The notes under the pieces: model-generated
The model's input: the letters and a program-made list of their open reading frames with translations, nothing else
Told to the model about the DNA's origin: nothing
Databases searched by the model: none
Translations under genes and position numbers: made by a program
Part shown: positions 3,699 through 38,874 of the stretch, one piece after another
How the letters are laid out: every line of letters begins with the position of its first letter
Position numbering within the stretch: the stretch's first letter is position 1
Source of the DNA: a virus
Strand: one strand, 5' to 3'
Length of the DNA stretch: 38,874 bases
IMG/VR virus record: IMGVR_UViG_3300017963_000147

Positions 3699-3775
3699 GG
3701 CCCTGTCGTCTAGTTGGTTAGGACGTTGCCCTTTCACGGCAAAAACAGTAGGTTCAAATCCTCTCAGGGTCGCCA
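3699..3775 (+). tRNA. tRNA-Glu (anticodon UUC at 3733-3735), CCA encoded
   Basis: Hand-folded cloverleaf. Acceptor stem GGCCCTG / CAGGGTC, D arm with TAGTTGGTTAG, anticodon stem TTGCC / GGCAA with loop CTTTCAC, and T loop GGTTCAAATCC. It closely resembles bacterial tRNA-Glu. Confidence 0.85.
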
Positions 3776-5181: not shown

Positions 5182-5931
5182 ATGGAGCAAAATTTAGAAA
5201 ACAGTTTGGAATCAGTACAAGAAGCACCTGCAGCACAAGAACCAGCCGTCGATAATACAGAGGCAACTGCCGACAACCAGTCGACAGTCGAACAAGCACC
5301 CATTGAAGATCCACAAGCAAAAAACATCAGAGAAATGCGCTTAATTAAAGAAAGAGCTGAAAGAGAACGCGATGAAGCTTATGCTATGCTTCAGAAAATG
5401 AAAGAGCAATCTGTCAAAAAATCTGAGTCTTCCGATGAAGATTTAAACATTGGTATTGGCGAAGAGGACCTCGTAGAGGGTAAACATCTAGGTAAAGTAG
5501 CCAAAGAAATAAGAGAGCTAAAAAAAGAACTCAATCAGTATAAGCAAACATCTACTGCAGCTACCACGGAAGCCAGATTAAAAACTAAGTACAATGATTT
5601 TGATAAAGTTGTAAGCAAAGAAAATGTTGAATCTTTAGTGCGTCTTCATCCTGAACTTGGTGATACCTTAAGAGCGAATACTGATTTATACAGTCAAGCT
5701 GTTTCTGCATACACTATGATTAAGCAAATGGGCATATATAAGGAAGATAAGTATGCTAGAGAGAGACAAGTAGCAGAAAAAAATATTGCGAAACCTCGTC
5801 CATTATCGAGCGTTTCTCCACAACAAGGCGAAAGTCCACTTTCTCATGCAAATGCATTTGCAAACGGGTTAACAGAAGAGCTAAAAAGCCAGCTACTTAA
5901 GGAAATGATGGAAGCGCGATCTAGAAGATAG
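5182..5931 (+). CDS. Putative scaffolding protein
   Basis: It lies between the portal and the major capsid gene. The N-terminus is acidic and low-complexity, and the core is K/E-rich helical. Call made from position and composition only. Confidence 0.5.
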   Translation: MEQNLENSLESVQEAPAAQEPAVDNTEATADNQSTVEQAPIEDPQAKNIREMRLIKERAERERDEAYAMLQKMKEQSVKKSESSDEDLNIGIGEEDLVEGKHLGKVAKEIRELKKELNQYKQTSTAATTEARLKTKYNDFDKVVSKENVESLVRLHPELGDTLRANTDLYSQAVSAYTMIKQMGIYKEDKYARERQVAEKNIAKPRPLSSVSPQQGESPLSHANAFANGLTEELKSQLLKEMMEARSRR

Positions 5932-5949
5932 GCTTTATTCATATTCATT

Positions 5950-5988
5950 CTTTCCTTTGCCCCCTAGTTTTTTTGTAATTTTTTCCTA
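5950..5988 (+). terminator. Rho-independent terminator
   Basis: Stem CCCCCTAG (5950-5957) / CTAGGGGG (5976-5983), followed by TTTT. Confidence 0.6.
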
Positions 5989-6031
5989 GGGGGTTTTGCA
6001 TCAGATATTTAATGCGATATAAAATCAAATT

Positions 6032-6107
6032 GGCAGTACGGGAATTCGCCAACCCACGAGCAGTATGGGCATCGCTCACCCAATAGGCTGTAGGGAATCG
6101 CCTCCCC
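6032..6107 (+). repeat. Three tandem imperfect ~25-nt repeats in the capsid-gene leader
   Basis: GGCAGTACGGGAATTCGCCAACCCA / GAGCAGTATGGGCATCGCTCACCCA / AGGCTGTAGGGAATCGCCTCCCC. Confidence 0.7.
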
Positions 6108-6221: not shown

Positions 6222-6485
6222 ATGGCAATAACCACTACAACGATACTTCCGCCCCCAGTCCAGCAAAGCTTTAGCTATAAATTATTGTCGGTACCCGTTC
6301 CCTCAATGATTCACAAGGTACCCGCGATGAAGAAAAGGATGCCGGCAAAAGGCGGTAATACTCTTCGTATGAGAAGATATAATGCACTTGATACTGCAAT
6401 GGTACCACTCGGCAACACCGGAATAACCCCTCCAGCTCAGACACTCACTGCGGTAGACATAGATGCTAAAGTAGATTTCTACGGT
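6222..6485 (+). CDS. Major capsid protein, exon 1 (88 codons)
   Basis: Strong RBS AGGAGATAG. The sequence (GGNTLRMRRYNALDTAMVPLGNTGITPP...VDFYG) resembles the N-terminal region of HK97-fold capsid proteins. The predicted 5' splice site is after U6485. Confidence 0.75.
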
Positions 6486-7191
6486 TTCGCATAGGTGCCG
6501 TAGTAAAACCCGTTCTGATTGCGAGGAACCCTAAACATATGTTATACTTGAGTGGTACATATATAAAAAGACATAGAAAGGATTACATATGCAAGGCAAC
6601 TCGAGGGAAGATTTGATTTACTTCGCAGGTTTATTTGATGGTGAAGGTTCAATTATGATAGTGAGAAACGCTTCAGAGTCATTTATGAAAAACAGAAAGC
6701 ATCCCCATTACGGGCTAGTGTGTAGGATTGGAATGATAGATAAAGACTTAATATATCAATTCCATGCGGCTGTAGGATTAGGGTCTGTTTATGAAGAGAA
6801 ACCTTATCACCACAAGCGCGCTATAACGCGTTGGATGTGTAGAAGAGTTGACGAAGTACCTCTTTTTTTAGAAAAGATGATTCCATTTTTAAGGTCTAAG
6901 AAAAAAAATGCATTATTAGCGCAGGAATTTATAAAAGAGTGTGTTGATAATCGAAGAAGAAAAATCAGCGAAGAAGTGCACAAAAAACAGCATGATTTTT
7001 ATCTTAAGATGAGAATATTGAATGGAATAGTTGAATCGCCCGCAACGACTGAGCGAATGGGCAAGCGTGGTCGAGATAAAGGCATACGCTTGAAGCAACA
7101 GTCTGATCTCATATGAAAGTATGAGAGAGAAATCCGAAGAGGTTTCTCCGCCAAGTAGAGAATATTTGGTCAGAAAAGTAACAGATTATTG
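6486..7191 (+). mobile_element. Group I intron 1 (706 nt) carrying a homing endonuclease ORF
   Basis: P1: exon CUACGGU (6479-6485) pairs with intron GCCGUAG (6497-6503), with U.G at the splice site. The intron ends in G7191. P10: intron AUAGGU pairs with exon 2 start ACAUAU at 5 of 6 positions. The junction is in frame. Confidence 0.75.
6589..7116 (+). CDS. LAGLIDADG homing endonuclease (single-motif, 175 aa)
   Basis: The motif LIYFAGLFDGEGSIMI lies near the N-terminus. The size is typical of homodimeric I-CreI-like enzymes. The ORF is wholly inside the intron. Confidence 0.8.
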   Translation: MQGNSREDLIYFAGLFDGEGSIMIVRNASESFMKNRKHPHYGLVCRIGMIDKDLIYQFHAAVGLGSVYEEKPYHHKRAITRWMCRRVDEVPLFLEKMIPFLRSKKKNALLAQEFIKECVDNRRRKISEEVHKKQHDFYLKMRILNGIVESPATTERMGKRGRDKGIRLKQQSDLI

Positions 7192-7281
7192 ACATATGTT
7201 GAATTAAACGAACAAGTGACTCTGCAGAGCCAAGATCCAACATTAAATGAAGCAGCGGCGAGATTAGGAGTTTCACTCCGT
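7192..7281 (+). CDS. Major capsid protein, exon 2 (30-codon micro-exon, not in the ORF track)
   Basis: Hand translation gives TYVELNEQVTLQSQDPTLNEAAARLGVSLR, which bridges exon 1 (..DFYG) and exon 3 (QTEDQLTRD..) in frame. Confidence 0.7.
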
Positions 7282-7477
7282 TAATTTGGCGGAGTATAAA
7301 TTTCTGGTAATTGACTTGGAAGCCTAAGGCGATAGCTATGGCGACAAGGCGCAAGGGTAAAGCTAGCGTGAGAGACTAAACCCAGAAACCCGTAAGGGAT
7401 GTGATAGTCCGAACAGCACGACGAAAGGTGCTGAGATGCACAGAAATGATGTATCCCCCGTAAGGGAGTAACAAATG
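7282..7477 (+). ncRNA. Group I intron 2 (196 nt, no ORF)
   Basis: P1: exon ACUCCGU (7275-7281) pairs with intron GCGGAGU (7289-7295), with U.G at the splice site. The intron ends in G7477. P10: UUUG pairs with exon 3 CAAA. A GC-rich structured core is visible. Confidence 0.65.
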
Positions 7478-8071
7478 CAAACCGAAGATCAGCTAACACG
7501 TGATATGTTGGCAGCAACCGCTGGTGCGATAAACTGCGTTGGCGGTAACAATGGTGACAACCCAACAAATATTGATCGGTCTGACGTTGATGACGTTGTT
7601 AGAACTCTTCTTTCGAACGATGCGTATACCGTAATGGATAACATCGAAGGTGAAGATAAGTTTGGCACCGGTCCTGTGCGTGATGCGTACTTTGCGCTGT
7701 GTTCAACGCAGCTAACAGGTAACTTAGACGCTGTTGCTGGTTTCTTACATAAAAATCAGTATCCAGCTCCAATGAATGCATTAAGAACAGAGTGGGGTTC
7801 AATTGGTAACCTTAGGTTCTTAGTGTCGTCTATTGGTTCGATTACTGCAAATAGCTCTAACTTGGGTGCAGATGTCTATAATATTTTCTGCGTTGGTATG
7901 GAAGCATATGCTTGTATCGAGCAGGATCAGTATTCTGCGCACTTTATTTATCTGCCTCCTGAATATTCTGGGCCGTTAGCGCTTAACTGTACAGTTGGTT
8001 ATAAGTTTGCAGAAGTGCCAAGAATTACAAACGATCTCTGGGTAATTAATCTACGTGCAACAAGAGCTTAA
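7478..8071 (+). CDS. Major capsid protein, exon 3 (197 codons)
   Basis: It continues QTEDQLTRDMLAATAG... and ends ...NLRATRA. The ATG at 7475 used by the ORF track is probably inside the intron. Confidence 0.75.
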   Translation, partial: QTEDQLTRDMLAATAGAINCVGGNNGDNPTNIDRSDVDDVVRTLLSNDAYTVMDNIEGEDKFGTGPVRDAYFALCSTQLTGNLDAVAGFLHKNQYPAPMNALRTEWGSIGNLRFLVSSIGSITANSSNLGADVYNIFCVGMEAYACIEQDQYSAHFIYLPPEYSGPLALNCTVGYKFAEVPRITNDLWVINLRATRA

Positions 8072-8082
8072 GGGAGATAATT

Positions 8083-9039
8083 ATGTCATATAATACTTAT
8101 ACTCAACAAGGTTCTTTTGTTTCTACTGGCGCAAGAAAAACATTATTGCTTCGTGGCGATATTGATTGGATTCATACATGGAACCTTACGACTCTCGCTG
8201 CGGGCGGTGCTGGTACTGGGGTTGAGTTCAGATGGATGCGTGGATTTGAAGATGATACCGCTATAGAATATACAAAGTTGGCTGCTGATGATTCAATTGC
8301 AATTGATACAATTGCTTCTGGTGGTTTTACACCTATCGATTCGTCAAAAACGCCTAAGTTATCGGCAATTAATTCAACGGTAACAGCTGTTTCAAATGCG
8401 TCGCCTCCGTTAGTTTCTCTAACATCGACAGCTGGTCTAGAAGAAAATGATATTATTCGAATCATTAATGTAACGGGTGCGCAGCAATTGGGTGGTATCG
8501 ATTTTACAATTGATACAATAACAGCAAATACAAGCTTTGAACTAGCTTTTGCGCCAACAATTGTTGCAGGTACAATTGGTTCATTTAGAAGGGTAATTAA
8601 GAATCCGCTTTATTATCCGCGTCATAGATATATTTCTGCGATTACACAGGCTACAAACGCTGTTATAACGCTAACTGTTACCCACGGATTTACTGTTGGC
8701 CAAATAGTTAGATTCCAAGTACCAGCAGCCTTTGATATGACAGAAATGAATAACCTTCAAGGAACAATTACTGCTGTAAGTGCAGTAAATAATACTATCA
8801 CAGTAAATATTGATTCGTCAGGATTTACAGCTTTTGCATGGCCACTAACAACTGACGTTCCATTTACTCCTGCAATGGTTATTCCTCTGGGCGATGAGGC
8901 TACAGTACTTGATGGTGCTACGTATAACCAAGGTTACATTGGAGTTGAATTGGCAGCTGGCGTTGATAGCCCAGCAGGTGTGTTAAATGACGATATATTT
9001 TGGATGGCCGGCAAGGGTTTTTCTGTAAATAATGAATAG
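8083..9039 (+). CDS. Virion structural protein, paralog 1 (318 aa; head decoration or fibre candidate)
   Basis: It immediately follows the capsid gene. The N-terminal (MSYNTY.QQGSF...GDIDW...FRWMRG...AIEYTKLAAD) and C-terminal (W.AGK.FSV.NE) blocks are shared with the next gene. It contains two beta-barrel modules of the ..G..V.......GM.E.N...G.I.......T..V.IDSS.FTAF type. Confidence 0.6.
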   Translation: MSYNTYTQQGSFVSTGARKTLLLRGDIDWIHTWNLTTLAAGGAGTGVEFRWMRGFEDDTAIEYTKLAADDSIAIDTIASGGFTPIDSSKTPKLSAINSTVTAVSNASPPLVSLTSTAGLEENDIIRIINVTGAQQLGGIDFTIDTITANTSFELAFAPTIVAGTIGSFRRVIKNPLYYPRHRYISAITQATNAVITLTVTHGFTVGQIVRFQVPAAFDMTEMNNLQGTITAVSAVNNTITVNIDSSGFTAFAWPLTTDVPFTPAMVIPLGDEATVLDGATYNQGYIGVELAAGVDSPAGVLNDDIFWMAGKGFSVNNE

Positions 9040-9085: not shown

Positions 9086-10063
9086 ATGTCATATAACACA
9101 TATATTCAACAGGGAAGCTTCCTTGCTGATGGTGAGCGAAAGACCGTTAATCTGCGTGGTGATATTGATTGGATGCATGTATACAATATAACTGTTCTTG
9201 CTGCAGCAGGTGCCGGAACAGGCGCTGAGTTTAGATGGATGCGTGGCCTTACTGACAATACTGCAATTGAATATACAAAATTGGCTGCTGATCAGTCACT
9301 TTCTCCTGATTATGTAACACCAGGTTTTAGGTATTTTAACGATCAGGATGATAGTGAGCTTGGTGCGCCTAATACAACGGTAACTAGAATAACTGCTGCA
9401 GGAGCTGTCTCGTGTACTAGTACTGCAGGACTGCTTGAAGGATCGATTGTACGATTTTTTAACGTAGAGAATGCAAATCAAATCAGTGGAATGGATTTTA
9501 CTGTAAGTACAATTGTAACTAATACTAGCTTCAATATATCTGCTCTTCCATCAAATATGGTCGACACTGGTGCTGGAATTACTGGCACATTTAGGATTGT
9601 TAATAAAGATCCTATGTATAGCCCTACAAAAGGTGTAATTACTGATGTTACTACGGGCGTTAATACGTTTATTACAACCTCTCGCAACGTAAGCGATATA
9701 TTTTCAGAGGGGCAATACGTACGGTTTAATATACCGGCCGGATGTGGGATGCCAGAGCTTAACGGTTTAGTGGGTAGAATTCTAGGCGTATCATCAGGAT
9801 TAAATTTGATAGAGGTAGATATCGATTCATCGGCATTTACAGCATTTGCATTTCCACTGCATGCAGCGGTACCAGTTTCACTTCCGGAAGTTGTTCCGGT
9901 TGGTGATTATGGGTATGATTTGCTAGTTAACAACATTGGCCAAACACAGAATCTATACAACATTGGAATGATTCTAGAGCCGGGTACTGATGCTCCTGCA
10001 GGTTCTGCCGGAGATGAAATCTATTGGATTGCAGGAAAATCTTTCTCTGTGACAAATGAATAA
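9086..10063 (+). CDS. Virion structural protein, paralog 2 (325 aa)
   Basis: Clear paralog of 8083-9039, with the same termini and domain order. It has its own RBS and terminator. Confidence 0.6.
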   Translation: MSYNTYIQQGSFLADGERKTVNLRGDIDWMHVYNITVLAAAGAGTGAEFRWMRGLTDNTAIEYTKLAADQSLSPDYVTPGFRYFNDQDDSELGAPNTTVTRITAAGAVSCTSTAGLLEGSIVRFFNVENANQISGMDFTVSTIVTNTSFNISALPSNMVDTGAGITGTFRIVNKDPMYSPTKGVITDVTTGVNTFITTSRNVSDIFSEGQYVRFNIPAGCGMPELNGLVGRILGVSSGLNLIEVDIDSSAFTAFAFPLHAAVPVSLPEVVPVGDYGYDLLVNNIGQTQNLYNIGMILEPGTDAPAGSAGDEIYWIAGKSFSVTNE

Positions 10064-38751: not shown

Positions 38752-38874
38752 ACTGCAAAGAATTACGGTAAACACTGCAAAGAATTACGTAAAGTGTTTT
38801 TAAGTACTTTAGGTAAAGTGTTTATTCTATGCTACGTTTACCAAACTGCAAAGAATTACGTAAAGTGTTTGGTG
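38752..38874. repeat. Terminal direct repeat, identical to 1-123
   Basis: See the first feature. Confidence 0.9.

Follow-up and report, generated by a model that had tools for sequence, protein, structure and literature searches.

Two predicted group I introns flanking a 90-nt exon in the major capsid gene of an uncultured phage

Results

Three exons of a major capsid gene

The major capsid gene of an uncultured phage, contained in the 38,874 nucleotides (nt) of IMG/VR virus record IMGVR_UViG_3300017963_000147 (the whole stretch is called the window from here on), is very probably interrupted by two group I ribozyme introns present in its late transcript. The original prediction, made from the letters alone, had divided the gene into three exons, and comparison with intron-less DNA bore this out. 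The open reading frame (ORF) list shows two fragments of the gene on the plus strand, at 6222-6494 and 7475-8071, and an unlisted open stretch of 30 codons between them (7192-7281) reads TYVELNEQVTLQSQDPTLNEAAARLGVSLR. When 6222-6485, 7192-7281 and 7478-8071 (264 + 90 + 594 nt) were joined, both junctions were in frame and the resulting 948 nt encoded 315 amino acids followed by a stop codon. Contig L002 encodes a 97%-identical capsid in an uninterrupted gene (L002:10001-10948), whose DNA aligns with the three window exons and with nothing between them; it matches exon 1 as far as ...TTCTACGG and reads ...TTCTACGGNAC... around the insertion site. The 90-nt micro-exon, which lacks a start codon and a ribosome-binding site of its own, corresponded both to this intron-less DNA and, in the protein alignment, to a conserved segment of the homologues. 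A single correction was needed: the third ORF fragment opens with an ATG (7475) that belongs to the tail of intron 2 and is not the true exon start. In all other respects the observation proved exact to the base. The coordinates of all features are collected in Table 1.

The spliced product is predicted to be a 315-amino-acid major capsid protein of the N4-gp56 type. It passed the cut-off of Pfam PF25209 (Phage_capsid_4; 33.1 bits against 27, residues 45-215) and its match to phrog_1357, the major head protein family of PHROGs, was continuous from residue 2 to residue 283 (E 2.2e-29). Among 5.8 billion proteins searched there were 2393 relatives with identities of up to 97%, several of them labelled by their source as "N4-gp56 family major capsid protein"; the best 120 of these measured 314-317 amino acids, with the sole exception of one of 363. 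More than 100 uninterrupted homologues of 315 amino acids aligned to the spliced capsid with a gap at neither junction, and the alignment thus ran unbroken across both, as had been expected. The same was seen in an alignment of 12 sequences, in which F86 Y87 G88 T89 Y90 and L117 R118 Q119 T120 E121 D122, the residues around the two junctions, were invariant, as were 22 residues within the 30-codon middle piece. Skipping of the 90-nt exon (6485 joined to 7478) would keep the frame and lose these 22 residues; tandem group I introns are already known to cause exon skipping (PMC10136302). No cultured relative was found in the phage genome collection (50,697 GenBank records), where tblastn of the capsid gave a best identity of 25.6%.

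These observations bear on the possibility that the gene is merely split, with an endonuclease cassette and junk inserted and no splicing taking place, either in a defective genome or with fragments that act separately. Gene callers do give fragments only, and free-standing endonuclease genes are known to split phage genes. However, the insertions are base-exact with respect to intron-less alleles, the middle 30 codons have kept their 22 invariant residues without a start codon, both inserts fold into covarying ribozyme cores, and the contig is probably a complete genome with a 123-base-pair (bp) terminal repeat. We consider an unspliced split gene very improbable. Even smaller, and in fact negligible, is the probability that the inserts are another kind of element (group II intron, intein, translational bypass or assembly chimera), for which we found nothing specific in favour. 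Stop codons follow in frame after the exon ends (TAG 6492-6494 and TAA 7282-7284), which excludes inteins; the ORF list contains no reverse transcriptase, the sole long ORF in either insert being of the LAGLIDADG type; inserts of 706 and 196 nt far exceed the known bypass gaps; and homologous introns are found at these two positions in contigs that stem from different samples. Group II intron, intein, unspliced split gene and assembly artefact were all rejected for the window.

Splice sites and their pairings

Comparison of proteins leaves an ambiguity of one nucleotide per junction, as GGT-ACA and GG-GACA (hyphens mark the junction) both encode Gly-Thr, and the predicted splice sites were selected because the rules of group I introns need a U at position -1 and a G at the intron end. 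The last base of both introns is indeed G (G7191 and G7477). Spliced RNA is predicted to read ...GATTTCTACGGT joined to ACATATGTTGAA... at the first junction (GGU-ACA) and ...GTTTCACTCCGT joined to CAAACCGAAGAT... at the second (CGU-CAA). At each 5' splice site a P1 helix of 7 bp, composed of six Watson-Crick pairs plus a U.G pair at the junction, had been described, and its coordinates held when re-checked: CUACGGU 6479-6485 pairs with GCCGUAG 6497-6503 in intron 1, and ACUCCGU 7275-7281 with GCGGAGU 7289-7295 in intron 2. The short P10 pairings were likewise recovered, with 4/4 pairs in intron 2 (UUUG 7285-7288 with CAAA 7478-7481) and 5/6 in intron 1 (AUAGGU 6491-6496 with ACAUAU 7192-7197). 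As a control for chance, a 7-bp pairing at a distance of <=40 nt that closes with U.G, wobble pairs being allowed anywhere in it, was found at 1.8-3.3% of random T positions in the window; the occurrence of two P1 helices exactly at junctions fixed independently by protein homology is well beyond chance.

A close homologue of intron 1, with an endonuclease of the same LAGLIDADG family, was observed in contig L306 (minus strand, locus ~200-1250), where it follows capsid codon 97 and not 88. Its guide is altered so as to suit the exon at that site (GCAGGU/GCCUGC), a change which the P1 model predicts and which offers a natural test of that model.

Group I architecture and covariation

Both inserts are predicted to be group I introns with a P3-P9 core, the P3/P7 pseudoknot being present in each, and two large families of introns in viral contigs support these helices by covariation. 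We built a covariance model, R1, of the segment P7-P8-J8/7-P9 from 31 other viral-contig introns, the window and the Staphylococcus phage Twort being kept outside the seed. R1 recognized the core of intron 1 (7037-7127) with 62.6 bits (E 2.2e-15) and intron 2 (7364-7435) with 21.2 bits (E 8e-4), and gave no further match elsewhere in the window. It also found the three introns of Twort orf142 (AF132670) with 32.1, 30.1 and 14.1 bits, the third match being weak (E 0.075), and it matched the intron in the ribonucleotide reductase gene of the Roseobacter phage CRP-118. The assignment of both inserts to group I, put forward originally, is backed by these matches, which show homology to introns proven to be self-splicing, together with the covarying cores, the I-CreI-like ORF of intron 1 and homologues at the same sites.

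Relatives of intron 1 were collected with a pattern of its two P7 strands (CAACGACTGA...CAGTCTGA), which gave more than 119 viral loci among the matches listed, and the loci retrieved have its layout of P8, P9, P9.1 and P9.2 and a ...GUAACAG..G tail. A script that searched for the P3 5' strand within 1.6 kilobases (kb), successful in 65/104 real loci vs. 44/104 in a reversed-sequence control, served only to choose compact introns for the alignment. In the resulting MAFFT alignment of 25 sequences (23 compact relatives, the window and L306, with the ORF excised from the last two), 93.5% of cells were paired vs. <=46% when the partners were slid, and changes on both sides were seen in 6/7 pairs of P3 and in all four pairs of P4, P6 and P8 (4/4 each). 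Window intron 1 fits the P3, P5, P6 (3/4 pairs), P7 and P8 of the family. Its core had no BLAST match in the phage genome collection.

For intron 2, a scan of viral contigs with the 14-mer GCGTGAGAGACTAA, drawn from its upstream P7 element, gave more than 119 loci among the matches listed, about 70 of which also possess the downstream counterpart; in the window, P7 is formed by the conserved elements GAGACUAA (upstream) and GAUAGUCC (downstream). In a MAFFT alignment of 35 of these sequences 87.6% of cells were paired, compared with 36-43% when the partners were slid, and both sides had changed in 7/7 pairs of P3, 3/3 of P5, 3/3 of P8 and 5/6 of P9; P4, P6 and P7 were invariant, and the invariance of P7 says nothing for or against. 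The minimum-energy fold of intron 2 yielded P1, P3, P4, P5, P6, P8 and P9 as well as two further 3' hairpins (z = -2.98). Many relatives of this intron carry HNH genes in the P6a loop. BLAST of the locus against the phage genome collection gave a single match, a segment of 70 nt in CRP-118 that is 81% identical to window 7310-7379 (P4 to P7). An alignment of CRP-118 to window 7262-7495 covers P3 as well, which is fully compensatory (UUUCUGG/CCAGAAA vs. CCUUUCC/GGAAAGG). In the record of CRP-118 (OR420741) two coding sequences, gp44 and gp45, are both named "ribonucleotide reductase", and the 400-nt gap between them contains an unannotated group I intron.

Several points count against this assignment. 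A scan with the Rfam group I covariance model, RF00028, had been proposed as a check and did not deliver the expected support, as neither intron reached its gathering score of 50 bits: intron 1 obtained 27.1 bits under a permissive E-value (E 1.6e-4, 6991-7125) and intron 2 gave no match even at E 10. In intron 1, P10 contains one G-A mismatch, P4 (CGAG/CUCG) is offset by a single base from that of most family members in the MAFFT alignment, and P6 has just three good pairs; its endonuclease remains below the cut-off of Pfam PF00961 (LAGLIDADG_1; 18.9 vs. 23.1 bits). Finally, splicing in this uncultured phage is something that we infer rather than observe. As for Rfam, at its gathering score it likewise gave no match in 14 loci where relatives of the two introns occur (L216, L235, L246, L252, L303, L306, L096, L097, L106, L135, L186, L088, L225 and L274), so that the miss reflects an insensitive test and not a refutation. 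Rfam was rejected as a decisive test, and its failure is due to the composition of the seed, not to absence of introns.

The two introns are independent elements, as they are found separately in related genes: L303 has an intron at codon 88 and none at 118, and L186 has one at 118 with no break at 88. From the exon junction sequences, site 88 is occupied in L303 and site 118 in L106 and L186, the latter two by homologues of intron 2; at the protein level, break points were located at or near 88 in L135 and at or near 118 in L098.

The endonuclease of intron 1

The ORF of intron 1 is predicted to encode an I-CreI-like LAGLIDADG homing endonuclease. Its single motif, LIYFAGLFDGEGSI, with a terminal acidic residue, aligns to the motif of I-CreI, and a sequence search of the PDB gave matches to I-CreI variants with E-values from 1.8e-7 (single-chain variant 3mx9) to 0.02, that to I-CreI itself being ~0.005 over residues 5-118. 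The protein also matched phrog_5046 (E 2.4e-16). Its AUG is located within the P5a 3' strand, and its stop codon extends from the last part of the P9 5' strand into the P9 loop. In L306, as in the window, the endonuclease start codon is sequestered in P5a, the pairing being kept with different bases.

Introns and mini-introns in the capsid family

All 80 best loci from the capsid-protein search were uninterrupted; interrupted capsid genes were found through the DNA motifs of the introns and not through the capsid protein. About 35 loci fetched in this way (among L085-L322) presented a capsid gene broken into 2-4 pieces; twelve or more sites recur, the break points falling near codons 73-84, 88, 97, 103-107, 118, 140-146, 162, 181 and 258-282. 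Three ribozyme cores were present in each of L098 and L135, and five within ~2.1 kb in L364, beside a capsid mini-intron. With at least 12 insertion sites, the capsid family is a hot spot for introns. The close spacing of the two capsid-gene introns, at 90 nt, had been called unusual, which holds only in part: introns in capsid genes, and several of them in one such gene, have been published (PMC3706429; PMC7886860), and close introns with micro-exons of 26-50 nt recur in this family.

At least 27 distinct related capsid genes contain an insert of 28-32 nt at codon 88/89, exactly the site of window intron 1. It starts after U, ends in G and carries a guide homologous to window 6491-6503; its P1 was 98% paired, and in its P10 the pair with the wobble base of Thr89 was Watson-Crick in 27/27 cases, comprising all four pair types. 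A third helix is formed with the following 26-nt micro-exon, both bases co-changing in 5/8 pairs. The insert is too short for a catalytic core, and a full intron core lay downstream in 26/26 loci with enough sequence. A second, unrelated family of inserts (38-42 nt) was observed at capsid codon 81/82 in 7 contigs; these are base-exact with respect to intron-less homologues (VDVD-CRVRVY), form a P1 with U.G at the junction and a compensatory change, end in G and each precede a full intron by ~60 nt. For these mini-introns, translational bypass as in T4 gene 60 was rejected, since matching take-off and landing codons are lacking, and so were dead deletion remnants, given that many diverged contigs retain them with covarying pairings. 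The simplest reading is that they may be removed by the ribozyme of the neighbouring intron. We found no description of a guide-only mini group I intron in the literature.

The mini-introns suggest that borrowed catalysis takes place in such genes, and an alternative reading is that intron 2 is not autonomous but a reduced intron, removed with help from the RNA of neighbouring intron 1 or from a protein. Its small size (196 nt), the lack of an ORF and of P2, the lack of an Rfam match at E 10, the 21.2 bits with R1 and the fact that guide-only mini-introns (28-42 nt) in related capsid genes always stand directly upstream of a full intron would all suit dependence. Nevertheless, the core of intron 2 is complete from P3 to P9, it includes the P3/P7 pseudoknot and the conserved elements flanking P7, and all of these are supported by covariation; a homologue is present in L186 without any intron at site 88, and another, with the compensatory P3, occurs in a different gene, the ribonucleotide reductase of CRP-118. 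Dependence of intron 2 on such help is unlikely.

Genome context

Positions 1-123 of the window are identical to 38752-38874, which constitutes a 123-bp terminal direct repeat, and the window is probably a complete phage genome of ~38.75 kb, circularly closed or terminally redundant. A tRNA gene at 3699-3772 (plus strand, 57.1 bits) was the sole Rfam family found in the window at the gathering score. Directly after the capsid gene come two tandem paralogous genes on the plus strand (8083-9039 and 9086-10063; 318 and 325 amino acids), whose products both start with MSYNTY.QQGSF and end with FSV.NE; the same pair is present in intron-less L002. Upstream of the capsid gene, most of the non-coding region (5901-6107) is 94% identical to L002 over 207 nt, compared with 87-89% for the coding exons, and contains repeated GGGAATCGCC motifs as well as a strong hairpin (CCCCTAG-T-rich-CTAGGGG); a terminator may lie here, together with a late promoter or leader.

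Table 1. Coordinates of the capsid gene, its predicted introns and related elements (positions refer to the window unless a locus is named).
Feature	Position	Strand	Details
Capsid exon 1	6222..6485	+	codons 1-88; ends ...AKVDFYG; last base U6485
Group I intron 1	6486..7191	+	706 nt; homing endonuclease ORF in P6a loop
Intron 1 helices, 5' part	P3 6509-6515/7055-7061; P4 6522-6525/6600-6603; P5 6530-6532/6594-6596		
Intron 1 helices, P5a to P6a	P5a 6536-6541/6586-6591; P6 6605-6607/7039-7041; P6a 6610-6613/7034-7037		
Intron 1 helices, P7 to P9	P7 7047-7051/7099-7103; P8 7062-7068/7086-7092; P9 7107-7114/7119-7126		
Intron 1 helices, 3' end	P9.1 7127-7134/7141-7148; P9.2 7151-7154/7166-7169		
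Intron 1 catalytic core, 3' half	7037..7127	+	P6', P7, P3', P8, J8/7, P7', P9; model R1
Putative LAGLIDADG homing endonuclease ORF	6589..7116	+	175 amino acids; single motif, residues 9-22
Capsid micro-exon 2	7192..7281	+	90 nt; codons 89-118; TYVELNEQ...GVSLR
Group I intron 2	7282..7477	+	196 nt; no ORF; terminal G 7477
Intron 2 helices, P3 to P5	P3 7301-7307/7382-7388; P4 7315-7318/7345-7348; P5 7322-7324/7340-7342		
Intron 2 helices, P6 to P9	P6 7349-7352/7366-7369; P7 7374-7378/7405-7409; P8 7389-7391/7396-7398; P9 7414-7419/7428-7433		
Capsid exon 3	7478..8071	+	codons 119-315 and stop; starts QTEDQL...
CRP-118 intron locus	L001:2970-3370		= OR420741 ~35056-35455
Codon-88/89 mini-intron loci	L088, L103, L106, L328-L380		e.g. 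L334:8467-8530, minus strand
Codon-81/82 inserts	L113:4672-4723; L156:3377-3425; L176:7289-7340; L324:2296-2347; L325:11269-11317; L326:7078-7129; L327:4246-4298		

Discussion

Introns in capsid genes, and capsid genes with several introns, have already been described, and the window represents a further example, in a capsid family that has been invaded by introns repeatedly. In crAss-like phages of the Delta and Zeta groups several group I introns interrupt the major capsid gene, endonucleases being encoded in some of them, and one capsid ORF lies in five fragments (PMC7886860). That study inferred the introns from protein domains, with no RNA structures, and the window belongs to a different lineage of 38.7 kb. 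In mycobacteriophage LittleE, splicing of a group I-like intron in the capsid gene was proven by reverse transcription PCR and protein sequencing, and the capsid-gene intron of lactococcal phage Tuc2009 is cited in the same paper (PMC3706429). These two resemble the window in the gene affected, in the U before the 5' splice site and in the G at the intron end, whereas they contain one intron and not two, in an unrelated capsid family; the LittleE intron also holds an endonuclease gene, but of the HNH type and on the opposite strand.

Twort provides a similar arrangement, with three group I introns and short exons in one late gene, orf142 (the record AF132670 "contains group 1 introns"); a newer Twort record annotates this region as a tail tube protein. 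The P7-P8-J8/7-P9 cores are alike enough for R1, a model of the intron 1 family, to find all three, although gene, host and phage type differ and BLAST revealed no similarity between the window introns and Twort at the DNA level. Unlike those of Twort, the window introns pass from P1 to P3 without P2, and intron 1 has a LAGLIDADG gene. The CRP-118 intron shares the core of window intron 2 and differs in its gene, its length (~400 nt) and its larger 3' part.

Endonucleases of phage introns belong more often to the GIY-YIG or HNH types. The putative enzyme of the window resembles I-CreI, from the group I intron in the chloroplast 23S rRNA of Chlamydomonas, in having a single LAGLIDADG motif, a length of ~160-175 amino acids and an intron as its coding site; the similarity to the native I-CreI sequence is weak, and target gene and host are unrelated.

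Splicing of the window transcript would begin when the 7 nt at the end of the upstream exon pair with a guide that lies shortly inside the intron; in the resulting P1 the U.G pair marks the point of cleavage. Next, a free guanosine held in the P7 pocket would attack after the junction U, the terminal G of the intron would subsequently occupy the pocket in its place, and the freed exon end would attack after this terminal G while the short P10 holds the downstream exon. Both splicing events would be required for the 264, 90 and 594 nt to become the 315-codon capsid mRNA. As regards mobility, during co-infection the I-CreI-type enzyme would cleave capsid alleles that lack the intron, at the invariant FYG-TY site, and repair would copy intron 1 into the cut allele. 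Intron 2 might spread with aid from its HNH-bearing relatives or by co-conversion with the cut of intron 1, the latter being possible because it lies only 90 bp from that cut site. A broader picture, in which the capsid-gene introns form a crowded and interacting set, one core splices two introns, the window preserves the full-length ancestral state of what elsewhere became a helper-dependent mini-intron, and intron 2 spreads by co-conversion, is offered tentatively, as a possibility that we would not yet favour over its alternatives.

These results have consequences for annotation. Standard pipelines report this essential capsid gene in fragments and its introns go unflagged by Rfam, and for these reasons the capsid genes of a widespread group of uncultured phages are mis-annotated; phylogenies or abundance estimates based on the capsid can lose such genomes. 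Routine annotation misses both intron families, given that Rfam at its gathering score finds none in the 14 member loci. For the study of splicing, the locus provides a clean natural example of tandem group I introns on either side of an in-frame exon of 90 nt, in the late gene with the highest expression, suited to following the order of splicing, exon skipping and homing between co-infecting phages. The two intron families, common in viral contigs and clustering in one capsid gene, make that gene a useful model for asking why conserved sites are targeted by mobile introns. If removal by a neighbouring ribozyme is true, the guide-only mini-introns of this capsid family could represent a new kind of dependent ribozyme substrate.

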